Virus record (IMG/VR): IMGVR_UViG_3300013800_000004
Span: 64,001 to 128,000 of that record
DNA length: 64,000 nt
Direction: 5' to 3' (one strand)
Origin: a virus
Lineage: Duplodnaviria > Heunggongvirae > Uroviricota > Caudoviricetes
Shown here piece after piece: positions 2,651 through 7,782 of the stretch. The position numbers and the translations under genes are program-made. Below the pieces are notes generated by a model, which saw nothing but the letters and a program-made list of their open reading frames with translations, made no database searches and had not been told where the DNA came from. Within the stretch, counting starts at the first letter, position 1. Every line of letters starts with the position of its first letter.

Positions 2651-2967
2651 GCACCGACGAATCCAACTTCCCGGACGACATGGGTTCTGCCGTATCTGCC
2701 TACGGGGGAGCCCCCCCTCCCCCGAGGTCCGGGCTGTACTACGCGCCCCGGGGCACGCCCCGAGAGGACATCCCCATCTTCGCCCTCAACGACATCGTGG
2801 CCGTCCTGGACGAAGCCATCGGGAAGCTGCGGGGGACACTTCACCCCGCGCGCCATCTCGCACTGGACACCCTCAAGCAGGAAGCCATCCTCATCGCCCG
2901 TGCTCGCCTCAATGACGAGGTGACTGCGTACTACGCGAGTCGCGGGATGTTCGGGGGGGGTCGATGA
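2647..2967 (+). CDS. hypothetical protein
   Basis: ATGA overlaps at both ends. Confidence 0.7.
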   Translation: MSTDESNFPDDMGSAVSAYGGAPPPPRSGLYYAPRGTPREDIPIFALNDIVAVLDEAIGKLRGTLHPARHLALDTLKQEAILIARARLNDEVTAYYASRGMFGGGR

Positions 2968-4511
2968 AGTTCCTTCTGCGCTCTTGCTTCATCGCGGTCC
3001 CCACGGATGACCCGGAGCTCACGTTCCGCAACTACTTCGCGCTGTCTGACTCAGGTCTCGGGTTCGACGTGCCCGAGGACACCACCATCTGGGAGTTCAT
3101 CCGGGACTTCTCACAGACCCACAACCACGCCCCCGACGTGCGGACCATCCGGTCGCACTTTGAGAACATCAAGAACCCTGAGGCGGGGGACCGCCTGGAG
3201 ATTATCTCCCCCCTCAAGCCCCTGTTCAAGGGGGACTTCATCAAGCGCCTGGAAGAGCGGGCCGAGGAGCGCCGGTCCCGGATGGTGGTTGACATCCTCC
3301 GTGAGGCCTCGCAGATCCTCCAGACGGGCGTCGAGGTCCAGGAGGGCAAGAAGAAGAAGCACCTCCGCGGCCCCATGGACGCCGTGCGCTACCTCGTGAA
3401 CAAGTCCCACGACATCGTGATGCCCACCTCGGGAGCACGGCTGTCGGGTGAAATCACCGGGGACGGCAACGACTTCATGCGGGAGTACGAGCGGGTCGAG
3501 AACGATCCGCTTGCAGGCATTGGCCAGTTCACGGGCATCGGACAGATGGATGAGGCCCTCGGAGGTGCCAAGAAGCACGAGCTCTGGACGCACGCAGCGT
3601 TCACGGGTGGACTCAAGTCCACCCTTGCGTTCAACTGGGCGTACAACCAAGCGGTGCACTACAAGTACGACTCGCTGGTGTTTTCCCTGGAGATGCCCTA
3701 CGCACAGGTGCGCCGCATTCTCTACGCGATGCACTCCCTCCACCAGAAGTTCCGGGACGACCGCATTCGCTTGGGGGTTCAGAAGAACCCCGGTCCCAAC
3801 GTGGGTCTGGAGTACGGCAAAATCCGTGACGGGAAGCTCTCCAAGCTGGCCCCGGCGGAGAAGACGTTCCTCATGGACTACGTGGTCCCCGACTTCAACT
3901 CAGGGCTCTACGGCAAGATCAACATCGAGGTGAGCGACCCGGACAAGTCTGACTACAACGTCGCAGACATGAGGGCCAGGGCGGAGCTCATCTACTCCAA
4001 GTCCCCGTTCCACCTCCTGTTTGTGGACCACGCCGGACTGCTTTCACCCCGCCAGTGGGTGCCCAGCACCACCGAACGCATCAACGAGGTGATCCGAGAC
4101 CTCAAGCGTCTGGCCATGAACTTCAACCGCGGCGCAGGCATGGCCGTAGTGAACCTGTTCCAAATCTCTCGTGAGGGCTTCAAGGCCGCAGAGAAGATCG
4201 CGGAGAAGTCACAGGGGACGTTCGTCAACGGCCCCTACAACCTCACCCACCTGTCGTACGCCAACGAGGTGGAGCGGAGCTCCGACATCGTGACGGCGAG
4301 CTACCTCAACGATGAGCTCCGGGCTGCGAACAGGGCGCTGTTGCAGTGCATGAAGTCTCGTGACCAAGCTCCGTTTCAGAACTTCTACGCTCGCGTGGAG
4401 TGGCACTGTCGTCGTATCCTCACCTCGCAGGAGATGCCTATGGTGACTGGCCGTAAGGACGGCGACGCCAAGTTGGCGGACTCCCTCAAAGAGATCGAAG
4501 GACTGCTGTGA
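2964..4511 (+). CDS. dnaB: DnaB-like replicative helicase
   Basis: QFTGIGQMDEALGG, Walker A AAFTGGLKST, FSLEMP, LLFVDHAGLL, VNLFQISR, NEVERSSDIV. Confidence 0.85.
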   Translation: MKFLLRSCFIAVPTDDPELTFRNYFALSDSGLGFDVPEDTTIWEFIRDFSQTHNHAPDVRTIRSHFENIKNPEAGDRLEIISPLKPLFKGDFIKRLEERAEERRSRMVVDILREASQILQTGVEVQEGKKKKHLRGPMDAVRYLVNKSHDIVMPTSGARLSGEITGDGNDFMREYERVENDPLAGIGQFTGIGQMDEALGGAKKHELWTHAAFTGGLKSTLAFNWAYNQAVHYKYDSLVFSLEMPYAQVRRILYAMHSLHQKFRDDRIRLGVQKNPGPNVGLEYGKIRDGKLSKLAPAEKTFLMDYVVPDFNSGLYGKINIEVSDPDKSDYNVADMRARAELIYSKSPFHLLFVDHAGLLSPRQWVPSTTERINEVIRDLKRLAMNFNRGAGMAVVNLFQISREGFKAAEKIAEKSQGTFVNGPYNLTHLSYANEVERSSDIVTASYLNDELRAANRALLQCMKSRDQAPFQNFYARVEWHCRRILTSQEMPMVTGRKDGDAKLADSLKEIEGLL

Positions 4512-5218
4512 CATCACCATTCGTCAAAATCCTCCCGTCCAAGTATTACGGGGTGAACACCAAGATCCCTCCGGCATCGTGGGACAGCCACTCTATGTGG
4601 CGGTGTACCAAACACATCCCATCCTCGAAGGTCTACCCGGCTTTCGTGGAGAAGTGCCCTACCTGCAACCAGCCTCGGCCACCCGAGGACCGCAGGCCCG
4701 CCGACCCGTATGCACCTCCCGTGAGGTTGGTGCCATCGCTCCCGGCGGCAGACACGGACCCCAATGCCACCATTGAGGCCCCCCCGGCCGTGGTGACCGA
4801 GGAGTCACTGGAGAACATGCGGACCCTCCGAGACGTGACCGCGGAACTGAACTTTGACAAGGACATGTCGCTGGGGCAGGCACAGCGGGACTTCGACGCC
4901 CTCGTCATGGGTGACCTCCTCAGCACCACCACGTCCGTGGTTCGTGCGATCCAGGACGATGGTGTGGCGAAGATCCAGGACGAAGTGGGCCGAGAGTTGG
5001 CGGCAGAACTCAGGAGTTCTGCCGCTTCCCTCAAGTCGAGGAAGGCCAAATGCCCTGGCCCTGGGTGCCGGAAGAGCGCGCGGGAGTCCAGCCCGTACTG
5101 TTCCAAGATCTGCTCAGACCGATGCCTCCGTCTCCGCAAGAAGACTACGCCCCTCACCAAGGTCGAGGCGGGGCACCTCAACCGTATCGAGACCGCTCTG
5201 GCGAACTGGAGGAAGTGA
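4508..5218 (+). CDS. hypothetical protein with two Cys-rich (putative Zn-finger) segments
   Basis: WRC...CPTC near the N-terminus and CPGPGC...YCSKIC near the C-terminus; coupled overlaps with both neighbours. Confidence 0.65.
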   Translation: MTSPFVKILPSKYYGVNTKIPPASWDSHSMWRCTKHIPSSKVYPAFVEKCPTCNQPRPPEDRRPADPYAPPVRLVPSLPAADTDPNATIEAPPAVVTEESLENMRTLRDVTAELNFDKDMSLGQAQRDFDALVMGDLLSTTTSVVRAIQDDGVAKIQDEVGRELAAELRSSAASLKSRKAKCPGPGCRKSARESSPYCSKICSDRCLRLRKKTTPLTKVEAGHLNRIETALANWRK

Positions 5219-5469
5219 TGGTCGAGCCGAAGGTTGTTATCTACCCGTTTGGGGACAGGGCCTACACGTCCACCTTGTACTACGGGGCGGACGTGAGAGC
5301 TTCCTTGCGGGGGATGGTGGCAGGGTCTGTCCAGTGCGTGGTGACGAGCCCCCCCTATTGGGGACTCCGTCAATACCTCCCGGCGGGGTCTGTCATGATG
5401 CGAGAGGATTTGACGGATGCCGAAAGGGTCTACGTCGAGGGTGAGTTGAGGAAGGCTGGGGTGTTGTGA
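5218..5469 (+). CDS. beta-class N4-C/N6-A DNA methyltransferase, N-terminal fragment
   Basis: GSVQCVVTSPPYWGLRQY (catalytic motif IV), then a 30-aa tail and stop. Confidence 0.85.
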   Translation: MVEPKVVIYPFGDRAYTSTLYYGADVRASLRGMVAGSVQCVVTSPPYWGLRQYLPAGSVMMREDLTDAERVYVEGELRKAGVL

Positions 5470-6074
5470 ACCGGCGGGAGGAACTCCCGCTCTGTGTTGG
5501 ACTTGCTGTGGACCCATCCATGGCATTTCCGGCACAGGGTGACGAGATTCCCCAAGGATGACCTGAGTTCAGGATGTGTGGACCATGGGTAAACGTGGTG
5601 GGCATGGAGTCCCCGATGTCCTTTCTTGGGAGACCCACACTTCACACACACGTACTGATCCCTGCGATACACTTCCCGTACGAGGTTCATCCACTCCCCG
5701 CTGGCGTACAACGACTGACGTTCAGGGGTCGTTCCGCCGCGAAAATTCGGGTTCGCCGCGCCAGTTCTTCCGTGCATCCCATTCAGTGCTCCCCGCAGAT
5801 GGGGTTTGGGCACGGACGCTTTCTCCCGAAGGATAGACTTGGTCTCCTCTGTATGTCTTTTCCCCTTGAAGGGATTGGGCATCCCTGTTCGAGTGTAGTT
5901 GTCGGCCCCCGAAAGGTTCGCCCCTCGGGGGCGGGTTGCGATCCCAAGAGCACGGAGTTTGGTGTGGACGGTCTTGGGATCACACCCAACAATCTTTGCA
6001 ATCCCGTAGGTTGAGAGCCCTTGCGTCACGTAGTGTTCGCGCAGCCAATCCGGGTCGATTTGTACAGTGCCCAT
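5430..6074 (-). mobile_element. free-standing HNH homing endonuclease (HTH + NUMOD3 + HNH), antisense, inside the methyltransferase locus
   Basis: PFKGKRHTEETKSILRE (NUMOD3); CVKCG...LHAHHVYPW...NLVTLCRKCHGWVH (HNH). ATG at 6074 with GAGG upstream. Confidence 0.9.
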
Positions 6075-6100
6075 ACCCACAACCCTCAATAGGGAAGTAA

Positions 6101-7213
6101 GTGATGACAGTCTTCAACATCAAAGACATCCCTCCCCATCTCCACCAGTATTTCGAGCCTGCCTCGGAGATCGGTCTGGAACAGACCCCTGAAGCCTACG
6201 TGGCTGCGATGGTGGAGGTGTTCCGTGATGTCCGTCGCGTGCTCCGTGACGACGGGGTTCTGTGGCTGAACCTGGGTGACAGCTATACTGGTGGGGGAAG
6301 CAACTCGCGGGTACCCACACCGTCCGGGCTCAAGCCCAAGGACATTTCCGGCATCCCGTGGATGGTGGCGTTCGCACTGCGGGCGGACGGCTGGTACCTT
6401 CGCAGTGATGTCATCTGGTCCAAAGGGAATCCGTTCCCAGAGTCCGTCACGGACCGCCCCACCCGCTCTCACGAGTACATCTTCCTGCTCACCAAGAGCC
6501 GGGAGTACTTCTACGACCACGTCGCGGTGAAGGAACCCGTGGCAGACGCCACCCGGAAGGACATGCGGATCGGGAGAGATGCCGTGCGGGACTACGCGAA
6601 CGCCGGGAAGTCCTTCGGGGTCGGGACGAGTGCCTCGCGACGGATGGCCACGAACTGTGTGGGTGGTGAGGGCGGGCTGCGGAACCAGCGGTCGGTCTGG
6701 ACCATCAACCCCAAGCCCTACAAAGGTGCTCACTTCGCCACGATGCCCACCACCCTGGCAGAGCTCTGCATCAAGGCGGGGTCGTCCGAGAAGGGCTGTT
6801 GCCCGGCCTGTGGAGCCCCCTGGGCGCGTGTGGCCGAGCACGAACAGGTCCCGGACCGCCCTGGCAGGGTTCAGGGCCGCGAGGGCGACACCCTGGATGA
6901 AGCCCACGGGAAGGACGGCCGGGCGGGCAACCGTCGTCGGGTGTCGTCACGGACGGTGGGGTGGGAGCCGACATGCAACTGCCCCGAGCACGAACCCGTC
7001 CCCTGTGTGATCCTGGACCCTTTCAGTGGGAGCGGGACGACGGGCTACGTGTCCAACCGGCTGGGGCGCAACTACGTGGGAACGGACCTCAACACGGAGT
7101 ACCTCCCCCTGGCAGAGGCACGGCTCCTCGGGATGGACCCCCCGGAGAACGGGGCGCCCACGGAGGAAGATGGCGATGCGGCTTCCATCATGGACATGTT
7201 CGGAGGTGGGTGA
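6101..7213 (+). CDS. beta-class DNA methyltransferase, C-terminal fragment
   Basis: EIGLEQTPEAYV...VLRDDGVLWLNLGDSY, HEYIFLLTKS, HFATMP, ILDPFSGSGTTG (motif I); AGGGAAG just upstream of the start. Confidence 0.9.
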   Translation: MMTVFNIKDIPPHLHQYFEPASEIGLEQTPEAYVAAMVEVFRDVRRVLRDDGVLWLNLGDSYTGGGSNSRVPTPSGLKPKDISGIPWMVAFALRADGWYLRSDVIWSKGNPFPESVTDRPTRSHEYIFLLTKSREYFYDHVAVKEPVADATRKDMRIGRDAVRDYANAGKSFGVGTSASRRMATNCVGGEGGLRNQRSVWTINPKPYKGAHFATMPTTLAELCIKAGSSEKGCCPACGAPWARVAEHEQVPDRPGRVQGREGDTLDEAHGKDGRAGNRRRVSSRTVGWEPTCNCPEHEPVPCVILDPFSGSGTTGYVSNRLGRNYVGTDLNTEYLPLAEARLLGMDPPENGAPTEEDGDAASIMDMFGGG

Positions 7214-7782
7214 TGAGTGAACTTCCCACAAGGTCGGAACGTCGGGTCGCTCGCATCCATGAGGTGGTCCGCATCGACAAGGTGCTGGAGGGCTACGGCT
7301 ACCGGGTGCAATCCAACGCCGACCGGGAGCAACAGTTCTCGTGTGATTTGCACGGTGATGGCACGGACTCCAAGCCCTCTGCCCGTGTTTACCCGAGCAC
7401 CAACCAGTTTTACTGTTGGGCGTGCAGCCGTAGTCGGGACGCCATCCAACTGGTGCGGGAGAAGGAGAATCTCTCCTTCCACGACGCCATCGAGAAGCTG
7501 GAGAAGTCCTACGGTCTGCCGTCCCTCCCCTGGGAGGACGGCGACCGGGAGGAGAAGCCCACGGACGAAGTGGCTGCGATCCTCGACGCCCCCTACACCG
7601 ATCCGGTGGGGGTGCGCGCTGAGCGAGTGATCCGTGCCATTACCAAGGAGCGCACAGAGTCCCTCTCTCGGGTGCTCAAGATGTGGGAGGCGTTCGACCG
7701 GGCTCGGTTGCTGGAAGAGGGTGGTGACACCGAGCCCATGCGGTCACTCCTCACGGTCCTTCTGCGACCTACCACACTGTGA
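7213..7782 (+). CDS. stand-alone CHC2 zinc-finger (primase N-terminal) domain protein
   Basis: FSCDLHGDGTDSKPSARVY...FYCWAC...DAIQLVREKENLSFHDAIEKL; no TOPRIM domain follows. Confidence 0.85.
   Translation: MSELPTRSERRVARIHEVVRIDKVLEGYGYRVQSNADREQQFSCDLHGDGTDSKPSARVYPSTNQFYCWACSRSRDAIQLVREKENLSFHDAIEKLEKSYGLPSLPWEDGDREEKPTDEVAAILDAPYTDPVGVRAERVIRAITKERTESLSRVLKMWEAFDRARLLEEGGDTEPMRSLLTVLLRPTTL

Follow-up and report, generated by a model that had tools for sequence, protein, structure and literature searches.

A phage DNA methyltransferase gene split by an antisense HNH gene, and a recurrent pair of junction peptides that may clasp its halves

When a homing-endonuclease gene lies within an enzyme gene, the enzyme may be lost, restored as a single chain or rebuilt from two. 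The question is raised by a locus in the window, by which we mean the whole stretch of 64,000 nucleotides analysed here (positions 64,001 to 128,000 of IMG/VR record IMGVR_UViG_3300013800_000004, a virus of the Caudoviricetes). An earlier note on this DNA described a methyltransferase gene cut in two and proposed that novel peptides at the two junctions serve as dedicated adaptors that dock the halves onto each other.

A methyltransferase gene in two pieces

At this locus, an HNH gene on the opposite strand divides a gene for a beta-class N6/N4 DNA methyltransferase. Its features are as follows:

5218-5469, plus strand: methyltransferase N-fragment (fragment 1; 83 aa), with the N-terminal strand and catalytic motif IV (TSPPY, as TSPPYWGLRQY), followed by the tail of the putative cassette
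5392-5466, plus strand: tail peptide VMMREDLTDAERVYVEGELRKAGVL, fitting L-R-x-D-L-T-x5-[YF]-V-x2-E-L-x-K-x-G, with the stop codon directly after it
5430-6089, minus strand: HNH homing-endonuclease gene, whose product has an HTH-like region at its N-terminus and matches NUMOD3 (Pfam) weakly
5484-5546, plus strand: long hairpin just 3' of the fragment 1 stop, within the HNH coding region
6092-6097, plus strand: GGGAAG, a Shine-Dalgarno-like motif 6 nt 5' of ATG 6104
6101-6166, plus strand: head peptide M-MTVFNIKDIPPHLHQYFEPAS, fitting M-x-[IL]-x-[FL]-x3-[DE]-I-P-x-H-L-x2-[YF]-F-[EK]-P and continuing in frame into EIGLE
6101-7213, plus strand: methyltransferase C-fragment (fragment 2; 370 aa), comprising the GLE helix, NLGDS, a Cys cluster within the target-recognition region, and motif I (DPFSGSGT)

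The open reading frames are as the earlier note had them: motif IV and motif I lie on fragments in different frames, with the HNH gene on the opposite strand between them, and this middle frame matches HNH (PF01844) in Pfam at 40.9 bits against a cut-off of 21.4. The HNH part of the note's HNH/NUMOD3 label thus stands, whereas NUMOD3, at 18.0 bits, falls under its cut-off of 20.4. Fragment 2 matches N6_N4_Mtase (PF01555) at 127.8 bits (cut-off 26.7), fragment 1 by itself being too short to score with this model. The beta permutation is present, fragment 1 holding TSPPY and fragment 2 carrying DPFSGSGT close to its C-terminus. In two intact homologues (L001 and L002), the gap from WGLRxY to [IL]GLE is only 5 residues, which bears out the near adjacency that had been claimed for intact enzymes. 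Residues 30-53 of fragment 1 align to residues 14-37 of intact L001, and residues 18-368 of fragment 2 to its residues 37-410; since the two alignments abut, the pieces tile the intact enzyme and nothing has been lost.

Each fragment has its own start, as in other genes in pieces in which a free-standing endonuclease cuts an enzyme gene into two frames. ATG 5218 of fragment 1 overlaps the stop codon of the upstream frame (TGATG), with GGAGGA at 5208-5213. Fragment 2 has its own ribosome-binding site, as had been stated, and ATG 6104 is its more likely start over GTG 6101. The HNH gene likely starts at ATG 6074, and its 3' end shares 40 nt with the tail codons. A scan of 4900-6500 found neither sigma-70 promoters nor intrinsic terminators. 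The 111-nt stretch 5460-5570, which bears the hairpin, has a folding energy of -51.2 kcal/mol (z = -3.6); the hairpin itself gave a spurious miRNA match in the Rfam scan. Megablast of the region against cultured phages returned no match; a near-identical fragment 1 comes from another sample (P0039).

Both halves are under purifying selection. Compared with a close relative (L006), the N part has a dN/dS of 0.29, the middle 0.15 and the C part 0.13; the span of these values takes in time before the split, and the value for the N part covers 53 codons only. The catalytic motifs are all intact in both halves, and the earlier description of halves that are otherwise undegraded agrees with this and with the tiling of L001; relaxed selection, which the note had named as a point against its proposal, is seen on neither half.

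A tail and head family at many methyltransferase sites

Extra peptides are real at both junctions, but the tail is probably shorter than the 30 aa first given. YLPAG is present in an unsplit homologue (L035), and LPAGS, the first residues of the 30-aa tail, is probably native loop; read in this way, the cassette-derived tail runs approximately from VMMREDLT to AGVL and comprises 25 aa. For the tail a short strand and an amphipathic helix are predicted, for the head a short strand, a short helix and a [YF]F-x-P turn.

Contrary to what had been supposed, neither peptide is a novelty of this locus; both belong to a widespread family with the core motifs L-R-x-D-L-T-x5-Y-V-x2-E-L (tail) and I-P-x-H-L-x2-[YF]-F-x-P (head). 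A degenerate DNA pattern for the tail retrieved 31 IMG/VR loci, all but one of them (30/31) true tails that end methylase N-fragments, and in nearly all of these 30 the head motif opens the remaining methylase 550-1075 nt downstream; the invariance of the tail columns is in part a product of the search pattern used. The DNA pattern was needed, as only two further loci came from a search for related loci that used the short alignments of tail and head. A 33-column tail profile matched 262 clusters (50% identity) among 1.84 billion representatives, and among the best motif-bearing profile matches, the tail ends at most 20 residues from the C-terminus in 133 of 146, i.e. the protein is split and not fused. 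All recognisable contexts of the tail are beta-class methylases, in which it occupies at least six different loop positions in two subfamilies. A search for tail and head in other genomes, which the earlier note had suggested, thus found them both with and without an intervening nuclease: in 70 cultured mycobacteriophages the split persists without an endonuclease, the parts being annotated as individual genes. Local HMM scanning of the phage's own 148-kb record detected no second tail or head.

Where an endonuclease gene lies between tail and head, it is of the HNH or the DUF559/Vsr-like type and may be on either strand. The HNH protein of the window is 56% identical to an antisense HNH at the same site in another locus (L105) and 32% identical to a sense-strand HNH in a third (L094). 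The site is polymorphic among relatives, being uninterrupted in L006 while L001 and L002 are unsplit. L006 shares 89% nucleotide identity with the window in DnaB and 94-95% in the methylase C-part; its orthologous methylase is cut at a different site, where a Vsr-like endonuclease lies between a homologous tail and a homologous head. This difference points to recent mobility, and the cassette presumably moves as a unit.

Selection acts on the peptides and not on the RNA, because identity within tail and head is highest at the second codon position, lower at the first and lowest at the third, identical residues often having different codons. Methylases of the HPTVKP subfamily have a head frame that stops 5-7 nt before the C-fragment, so that the head is there not simply a covalent handle on the C-fragment.

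In endonuclease-free genes of another kind, tail and head lie in one frame, connected by a joint of 3-12 residues, and form an in-frame insert of ~45 aa. Such fused forms occur at three sites in all, the site of the window (P0138, P0113, P0024) and two others (P0148/L115 and P0030/L104); the L115 example lies in a frameshifted gene and adjoins endonuclease debris. Because so short a joint fuses tail and head, the module must be a closed excursion whose two arms lie together. AlphaFold2 models were obtained for P0138, at the site of the window (pLDDT 77-91 for residues 31-60, 45.7 for the whole model), and for P0148 (pLDDT 72-87 for residues 121-160). The module is the highest-confidence part of both and follows one pattern in both: the conserved tail Leu and the conserved head Phe each form a bridge, and between the bridges lie a helix and then a short helix. 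Together, fused forms and models suggest that tail and head bind each other. A complex prediction of tail and head alone (30 aa each, alignments of 21 rows) gave a score of 0.27, the mark being 0.32, which weighs neither for nor against contact.

Two chains, one chain or none

These observations could be accounted for in the following manner, which we regard as probable, if far from secure: a mobile cassette has entered a beta-class methylase gene, and its tail and head form a clasp that rebuilds a two-chain enzyme. The cassette would consist, in this order, of the tail codons with a stop, a free-standing HNH gene (antisense here), a ribosome-binding site, a start and the head codons; as it supplies a stop and then a ribosome-binding site and start, the gene would be expressed as two polypeptides. 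The 83-aa chain would provide the catalytic SPPY loop, and the 370-aa chain the remaining fold and the AdoMet site. Tail and head may be the two arms of one small module, shaped much like a hairpin and standing out from a surface loop; most likely they pack together and clasp both chains, and the methylase may then still assemble and work. By comparison across loci, docking appears well supported: the pair is conserved and co-occurs, selection acts at the peptide level, different endonucleases are found at six or more sites, and fused forms exist. The earlier note's reading of the peptides as dedicated adaptors is thus supported in part, a docking role being probable.

More tentatively, the cassette may represent a third route by which homing endonucleases enter coding sequence, besides introns and inteins: a portable two-peptide clasp of ~45 aa would turn the host enzyme into a non-covalent two-chain protein, persist as a fused mini-domain after loss of the endonuclease, and spread over many loop positions of phage beta-class DNA methylases.

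The peptides need not have been brought by the endonuclease. The tail-head unit could be an older, integral insertion domain with its own job (e.g. DNA contact or dimerisation), the central loop of which serves as a homing site, the split being tolerated only thanks to the stable hairpin. Contiguous endonuclease-free modules at three sites would fit such a domain, as would the confinement of the tail family to methylases and the presence of differing endonuclease families, in both orientations, at the same central position. We nevertheless consider it unlikely: the module sits at no fewer than six non-homologous positions in two methylase subfamilies and matches no known domain, split members prevail over fused ones (133 of 146), and its position differs between the window and L006, closely related as these are. 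The scattered positions and this last difference fit a mobile unit better than an inherited domain. Less probable still is that the methylase is dead, its pieces not yet decayed, and that the peptides serve the cassette only, as stop and start signals or in the control of endonuclease expression. Phage orphan methylases are often gained and lost, according to the account of Gosselin et al. 2023 (PMC9957025), and one fused relative is frameshifted and adjoins endonuclease debris; but dN/dS of 0.13-0.29 on both halves and the full set of intact motifs argue against decay, as do split forms over 262 clusters (50% identity) and endonuclease-free split forms in 70 cultured phages, and signals alone would not yield selection on ~45 peptide residues.

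Introns and inteins commonly house endonuclease genes, and the split-intein fractured genes of Dassa et al. 2009 (PMC2677866), as presented there, share the gene order of the locus. That the insert is removed, through group I splicing, split-intein splicing or ribosomal bypass, to give a single-chain enzyme, is nevertheless very improbable here. The Rfam scan of 4800-7400, with E up to 10, returned only chance matches to RNA families and no group I intron, and the flanks are conserved as codons, tracking codon position and not RNA pairing. Tail and head together amount to ~50 aa, short of HINT-size halves; the tail follows Y-LPAGS and starts without Cys, Ser or Thr as a nucleophile, and the head ends in EPAS-E, without His-Asn and a following Cys, Ser or Thr. 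Natural fused forms retain tail and head within the frame, and the gap of ~630 nt is far beyond any known bypass. Any reassembly of the methylase must consequently be non-covalent, given the size of the flanks and their lack of intein motifs. We rejected a different origin of the peptides, by which tail and head would descend from target-site copies of the native GLE helix and motif IV that have since decayed (shuffling p ~0.17; hhalign of the profiles, 1-2.5% probability); in BLAST, motif IV of phage Petra had come up as a match to the head.

Relation to other split genes and implications

A homing endonuclease is likewise associated with a split enzyme gene in gene 39 / mobA / gene 60 of phage T4, where gene 60 contains a coding gap of 50 nt that is passed via nascent-peptide and mRNA signals. 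The stop-led gap of 5-7 nt after HPT in related methylase loci recalls this gap; in the window, unlike T4 gene 60, head and C-fragment share a frame, so that the split can be read without recoding. The Mycobacterium phages Ksquared (gp56-57-58) and Harley (gp68-69-70) also have members of the window's tail and head family, in the form of a tail-ended N-fragment, a 29-aa 'hypothetical protein', which is the head frame, and a small 'methyltransferase' frame. These loci differ from the window in having a 75-nt spacer without endonuclease, in methylase subfamily and site, and in a stop and frame change between the head frame and the C-fragment.

A close parallel is nrdA-a / mobE / nrdA-b of Aeromonas phage Aeh1, where, as relayed by Dassa 2009 (PMC2677866) from Friedrich et al. 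2007, the two NrdA parts are able to make up a working ribonucleotide reductase with no splicing involved. There, too, on that account, the gene of a free-standing HNH homing endonuclease interrupts an enzyme gene, which is translated as two separate frames; in the methylases, in contrast, one tail and head family turns up at many sites, combined with different endonucleases. To our knowledge, no conserved portable junction-peptide pair has been described for Aeh1 nrdA.

The fractured genes of marine phage metagenomes, in the description of Dassa et al. 2009 (PMC2677866), consist of an N-part, a free-standing GIY-YIG or Vsr-like endonuclease with its own control elements, and a C-part, the invading element bringing stop and start; the methylase locus has the same order. 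In the fractured genes the flanking parts are halves of split inteins and undergo splicing, in contrast to methylase flanks of ~50 aa without intein motifs; the sole intein-less case given there, an SbcD-like gene, carries additional residues on both frames, 25 upstream and 9 downstream. Selfish insertions have also been reported for the actinophage Dorothy_75-like methylase family, which according to Gosselin et al. 2023 (PMC9957025) includes an intein, a LAGLIDADG domain and a 'ShiLan domain'. Their picture of phage orphan methylases as hot spots for insertions moving between divergent methylases resembles ours, and ShiLan, Martik, Phalm, Glaske, CactusJack and StressBall, phages named in that paper, are among our tail matches; the insertions described there are, however, in frame and 202-327 aa long, and neither its discussion nor a term search of its text yielded a mention of the split, the tail or the head. 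A literature search for a split methylase with a homing endonuclease, or for the tail/head cassette, likewise found no description.

If the clasp is real, it would be a natural, compact and splicing-free way to split an enzyme at surface loops, and a self-associating pair of 25 and 20 residues, accepted at six positions or more of one fold, could become a tool for split-enzyme engineering. It would also explain how free-standing homing endonucleases colonise genes without intron or intein, and why hundreds of phage annotations, including those of cultured mycobacteriophages, read 'truncated methylase / tiny hypothetical protein / small methyltransferase'. For the prediction of phage methylomes and of the evasion of host restriction, fragmented methylases of this kind would then have to be flagged as probably active.

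The split methylase gene and its intact relatives

The phage behind the 148-kb IMG/VR viral record that holds the window is probably very large, since CheckV rates the record as 33% complete. The split methylase is located in the replication module, with a DnaB-like helicase (2964-4511) on one side and, from 7213, a primase on the other. ORFs and Pfam matches confirm the earlier note in that an HNH gene splits the methylase and leaves motif IV and motif I on separate ORFs:

5218-5469, plus strand: fragment 1, 83 aa, native part ending TSPPYWGLRQY
5430-6089, minus strand: middle ORF, 219 aa, HNH (40.9 bits) and a sub-threshold NUMOD3 match (Pfam)
6101-7213, plus strand: fragment 2, 370 aa, resuming at EIGLEQTPEAYV and ending with DPFSGSGT; N6_N4_Mtase, 127.8 bits (Pfam)

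Shine-Dalgarno-like motifs precede both fragments, including fragment 2, to which the earlier note had assigned its own ribosome-binding site; for this fragment, ATG 6104 is the more likely start, ahead of GTG 6101. Fragment 1 is coupled via a TGATG overlap to the upstream ORF (4508-5218), which encodes 236 aa with the Cys clusters CPTC and CPGPGC...CSKICSDRC and has no match in Pfam; in the related locus L006 both ends of its counterpart are kept and the middle is different. Directly after the stop of fragment 1, within the HNH coding region, lies a long near-perfect hairpin (5484-5546). The 111-nt stretch holding it (5460-5570) reaches -51 kcal/mol (z = -3.6); its weak Rfam match as a miRNA was judged mislabelled.

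In the intact homologues L001 (from a 485-kb uncultured phage) and L002 (Methanoculleus virus L4768), five residues separate WGLRxY from [IL]GLE, the short spacing that had been expected for intact enzymes. Residues 30-53 of fragment 1 align with residues 14-37 of L001, and residues 18-368 of fragment 2 with its residues 37-410 at 51% identity. By these alignments the two pieces tile an intact enzyme with no part missing, in line with the claim that both halves are otherwise undegraded.

A tail and head pair at many insertion sites

The peptides that end the N-fragment (tail) and open the C-fragment (head) had been taken for novel; homologues occur at many other loci, L006 and L010 among them. 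L006 (IMGVR_UViG_3300005657_000163, 2680-4903) is a close relative, at 89% nucleotide identity to the window for DnaB and 94-95% for the C-part of the methylase. Its orthologous methylase is unbroken at the window's site; the split comes instead after NLGDSFAG, where an antisense gene encodes a Vsr-like endonuclease with a zinc finger. Its tail RLRADLTPDQITYVLSELSKA resembles the window tail MMREDLTDAERVYVEGELRKA, and its head EEIPAHLMNFFEP the window head KDIPPHLHQYFEP. L010, from a 536-kb phage, has the same tail and head around an HNH gene at a third split site, after GLEPTP.

A degenerate DNA tail pattern matched 31 IMG/VR loci, all except one being true tails that end methylase N-fragments; in almost all of these loci the head motif opens the remaining methylase 550-1075 nt downstream. 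A tail profile search of 1.84 billion cluster representatives yielded 262 clusters at E <= 0.001, with a beta-class methylase as the context in every recognisable case; the tail lies at most 20 residues from the C-terminus in 133 of the 146 best profile matches bearing the motif. The invariant tail columns owe part of their invariance to the search pattern used. P0039, a representative from another sample, is a near-identical fragment 1 with one tail change. Two methylase subfamilies are affected, with insertions at six or more different loop positions. Genes between tail and head may lie on either strand; they code for HNH endonucleases, which carry HTH, NUMOD3 or zinc ribbons, or for endonucleases of the DUF559/Vsr-like type. 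At the window's site, L105 has an antisense HNH (56% identical to that of the window) and L094 a sense-strand one (32%).

The search of other genomes that the earlier note had proposed found the peptides both with and without an intervening endonuclease. In endonuclease-free single ORFs, tail and head are fused through 3-12 residues: at the window's own site (P0138, P0113, P0024), after GLEPTP (P0148, L115) and in the HPTVKP subfamily (P0030/L104). These forms show the unit as ~45 aa inserted in frame, in place of a 5-residue loop. L116 and L110 are split without an endonuclease, tail stop and head start being only 7-79 nt apart. A methylase ORF with a tail is present in seventy cultured mycobacteriophages. 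Ksquared and Harley, the two inspected, have this ORF, then a head ORF of 29 aa and then a small methyltransferase ORF, each annotated as a gene of its own.

Several loci have further peculiarities. The motif IV-to-GLE loop of L006 carries a Cys-rich insert of ~50 aa, absent from the window. L010:1661-6322 holds three beta-class methylase genes in tandem, of which the cassette splits the middle one only; a Cys cluster (TPxC ... CxxCYxCH) on the tail and head flanks could bind zinc across both chains. At L099:10193-10978, where the site follows RNxRxVW, the native segment flanks the cassette on either side: GRNIRNVWTAPES precedes the tail and GRNIWTIPTE follows the head. This looks like a duplication of ~10 target codons. 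In the HPTVKP subfamily (L086:3879-4284, L087:3852-4174, L121:2675-2990 of Ksquared, L122 of Harley) the head ORF always ends ...AHPT-stop, and the VKP... C-fragment starts 5-7 nt after this stop in another frame (TAGNGCC or TGACC); termination-reinitiation or recoding could be at work. The fused-module methylase of L115:686-2700 is frameshifted at SPPYW; upstream of it are HNH gene remnants and, in two partial copies, the N-terminus of the methylase. The locus has the look of a site invaded again and again. P0138, P0149, P0046 and P0125 combine, as judged by eye, a large intein-like insert with a tail cassette in one gene (examples: one starting CLS after IIW; ...VFITGNS). At the window's split, an intein is ruled out by the junction residues, and shuffling and hhalign gave no support for tail and head as decayed duplicates of native flanks.

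Selection on the peptides and predicted fold of the module

Across the tails and heads of the window, L006 and L010, identity is highest at the second codon position and lowest at the third, and the same residues are frequently encoded by different codons; this pattern marks the peptides themselves, and not an RNA or DNA site, as the target of selection. Compared with L006, the 53 codons of the N part have a dN/dS of 0.29, the IGLE-to-GDS segment 0.15, the C part 0.13 and DnaB 0.08. These values do not point to relaxed selection on either half, which the earlier note had named as evidence against its reading. Synonymous divergence is 0.62-0.64 adjoining the insertion sites and lower, 0.155, in the C part, a pattern that could reflect co-conversion of the flanking DNA in homing.

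The module departs from the methylase and returns to it at neighbouring positions, and a few residues are enough to join its arms, so that tail and head would have to lie side by side. AlphaFold2 models support this arrangement: in P0138, where the truncated protein overall is poorly modelled, the module is the best-predicted region (pLDDT 77-91 for residues 31-60), and in P0148 it reaches pLDDT 72-87. The two models share their elements: bridge residues at the conserved Leu of the tail and the conserved Phe of the head, the helix of the tail and a short one in the head. The module matched no known domain in Pfam.

Precedents and a possible two-chain enzyme

Free-standing homing endonucleases are already known to split genes: examples are nrdA/mobE of Aeh1 and gp43, the DNA polymerase gene of Aeromonas phage 25, with its GIY-YIG endonuclease (both as cited within Dassa et al. 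2009, PMC2677866). The "fractured genes" of that study are alike in gene order, their flanks being split inteins; one intein-less SbcD-like case has 25 + 9 extra junction residues. Gosselin et al. 2023 (PMC9957025) describe a methylase family of actinophages with its inteins and further insertions, and several of our tail-bearing phages belong to this family; the parts consulted and a term search of the text held no mention of the split or of the peptides. Our literature search found no description of a conserved, portable tail/head pair.

The cassettes form a conserved family under selection. Contact between tail and head, and enzyme activity, are inferred. That the module is an older insertion domain of the methylase, merely colonised by endonucleases, strikes us as rather unlikely: the many non-homologous sites, and the different sites in two close relatives, argue for mobility, although they do not settle the order of arrival. 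A dead methylase gene is less probable still, being a poor fit to the dN/dS values and to how widespread the family is. The codon pattern, the fused forms and the Rfam search of the locus, which returned no intron or other RNA family, contradict splicing or bypass, and this reading seems very improbable.

We somewhat favour a mechanism in which a surface loop hosts the cassette, consisting of tail and stop, endonuclease gene, and ribosome-binding site, start and head. The two methylase chains would be translated separately, and tail and head may then pack together, each forming one arm of a small module like a hairpin, which would help the 83-aa catalytic-loop piece to dock onto the 370-aa body.
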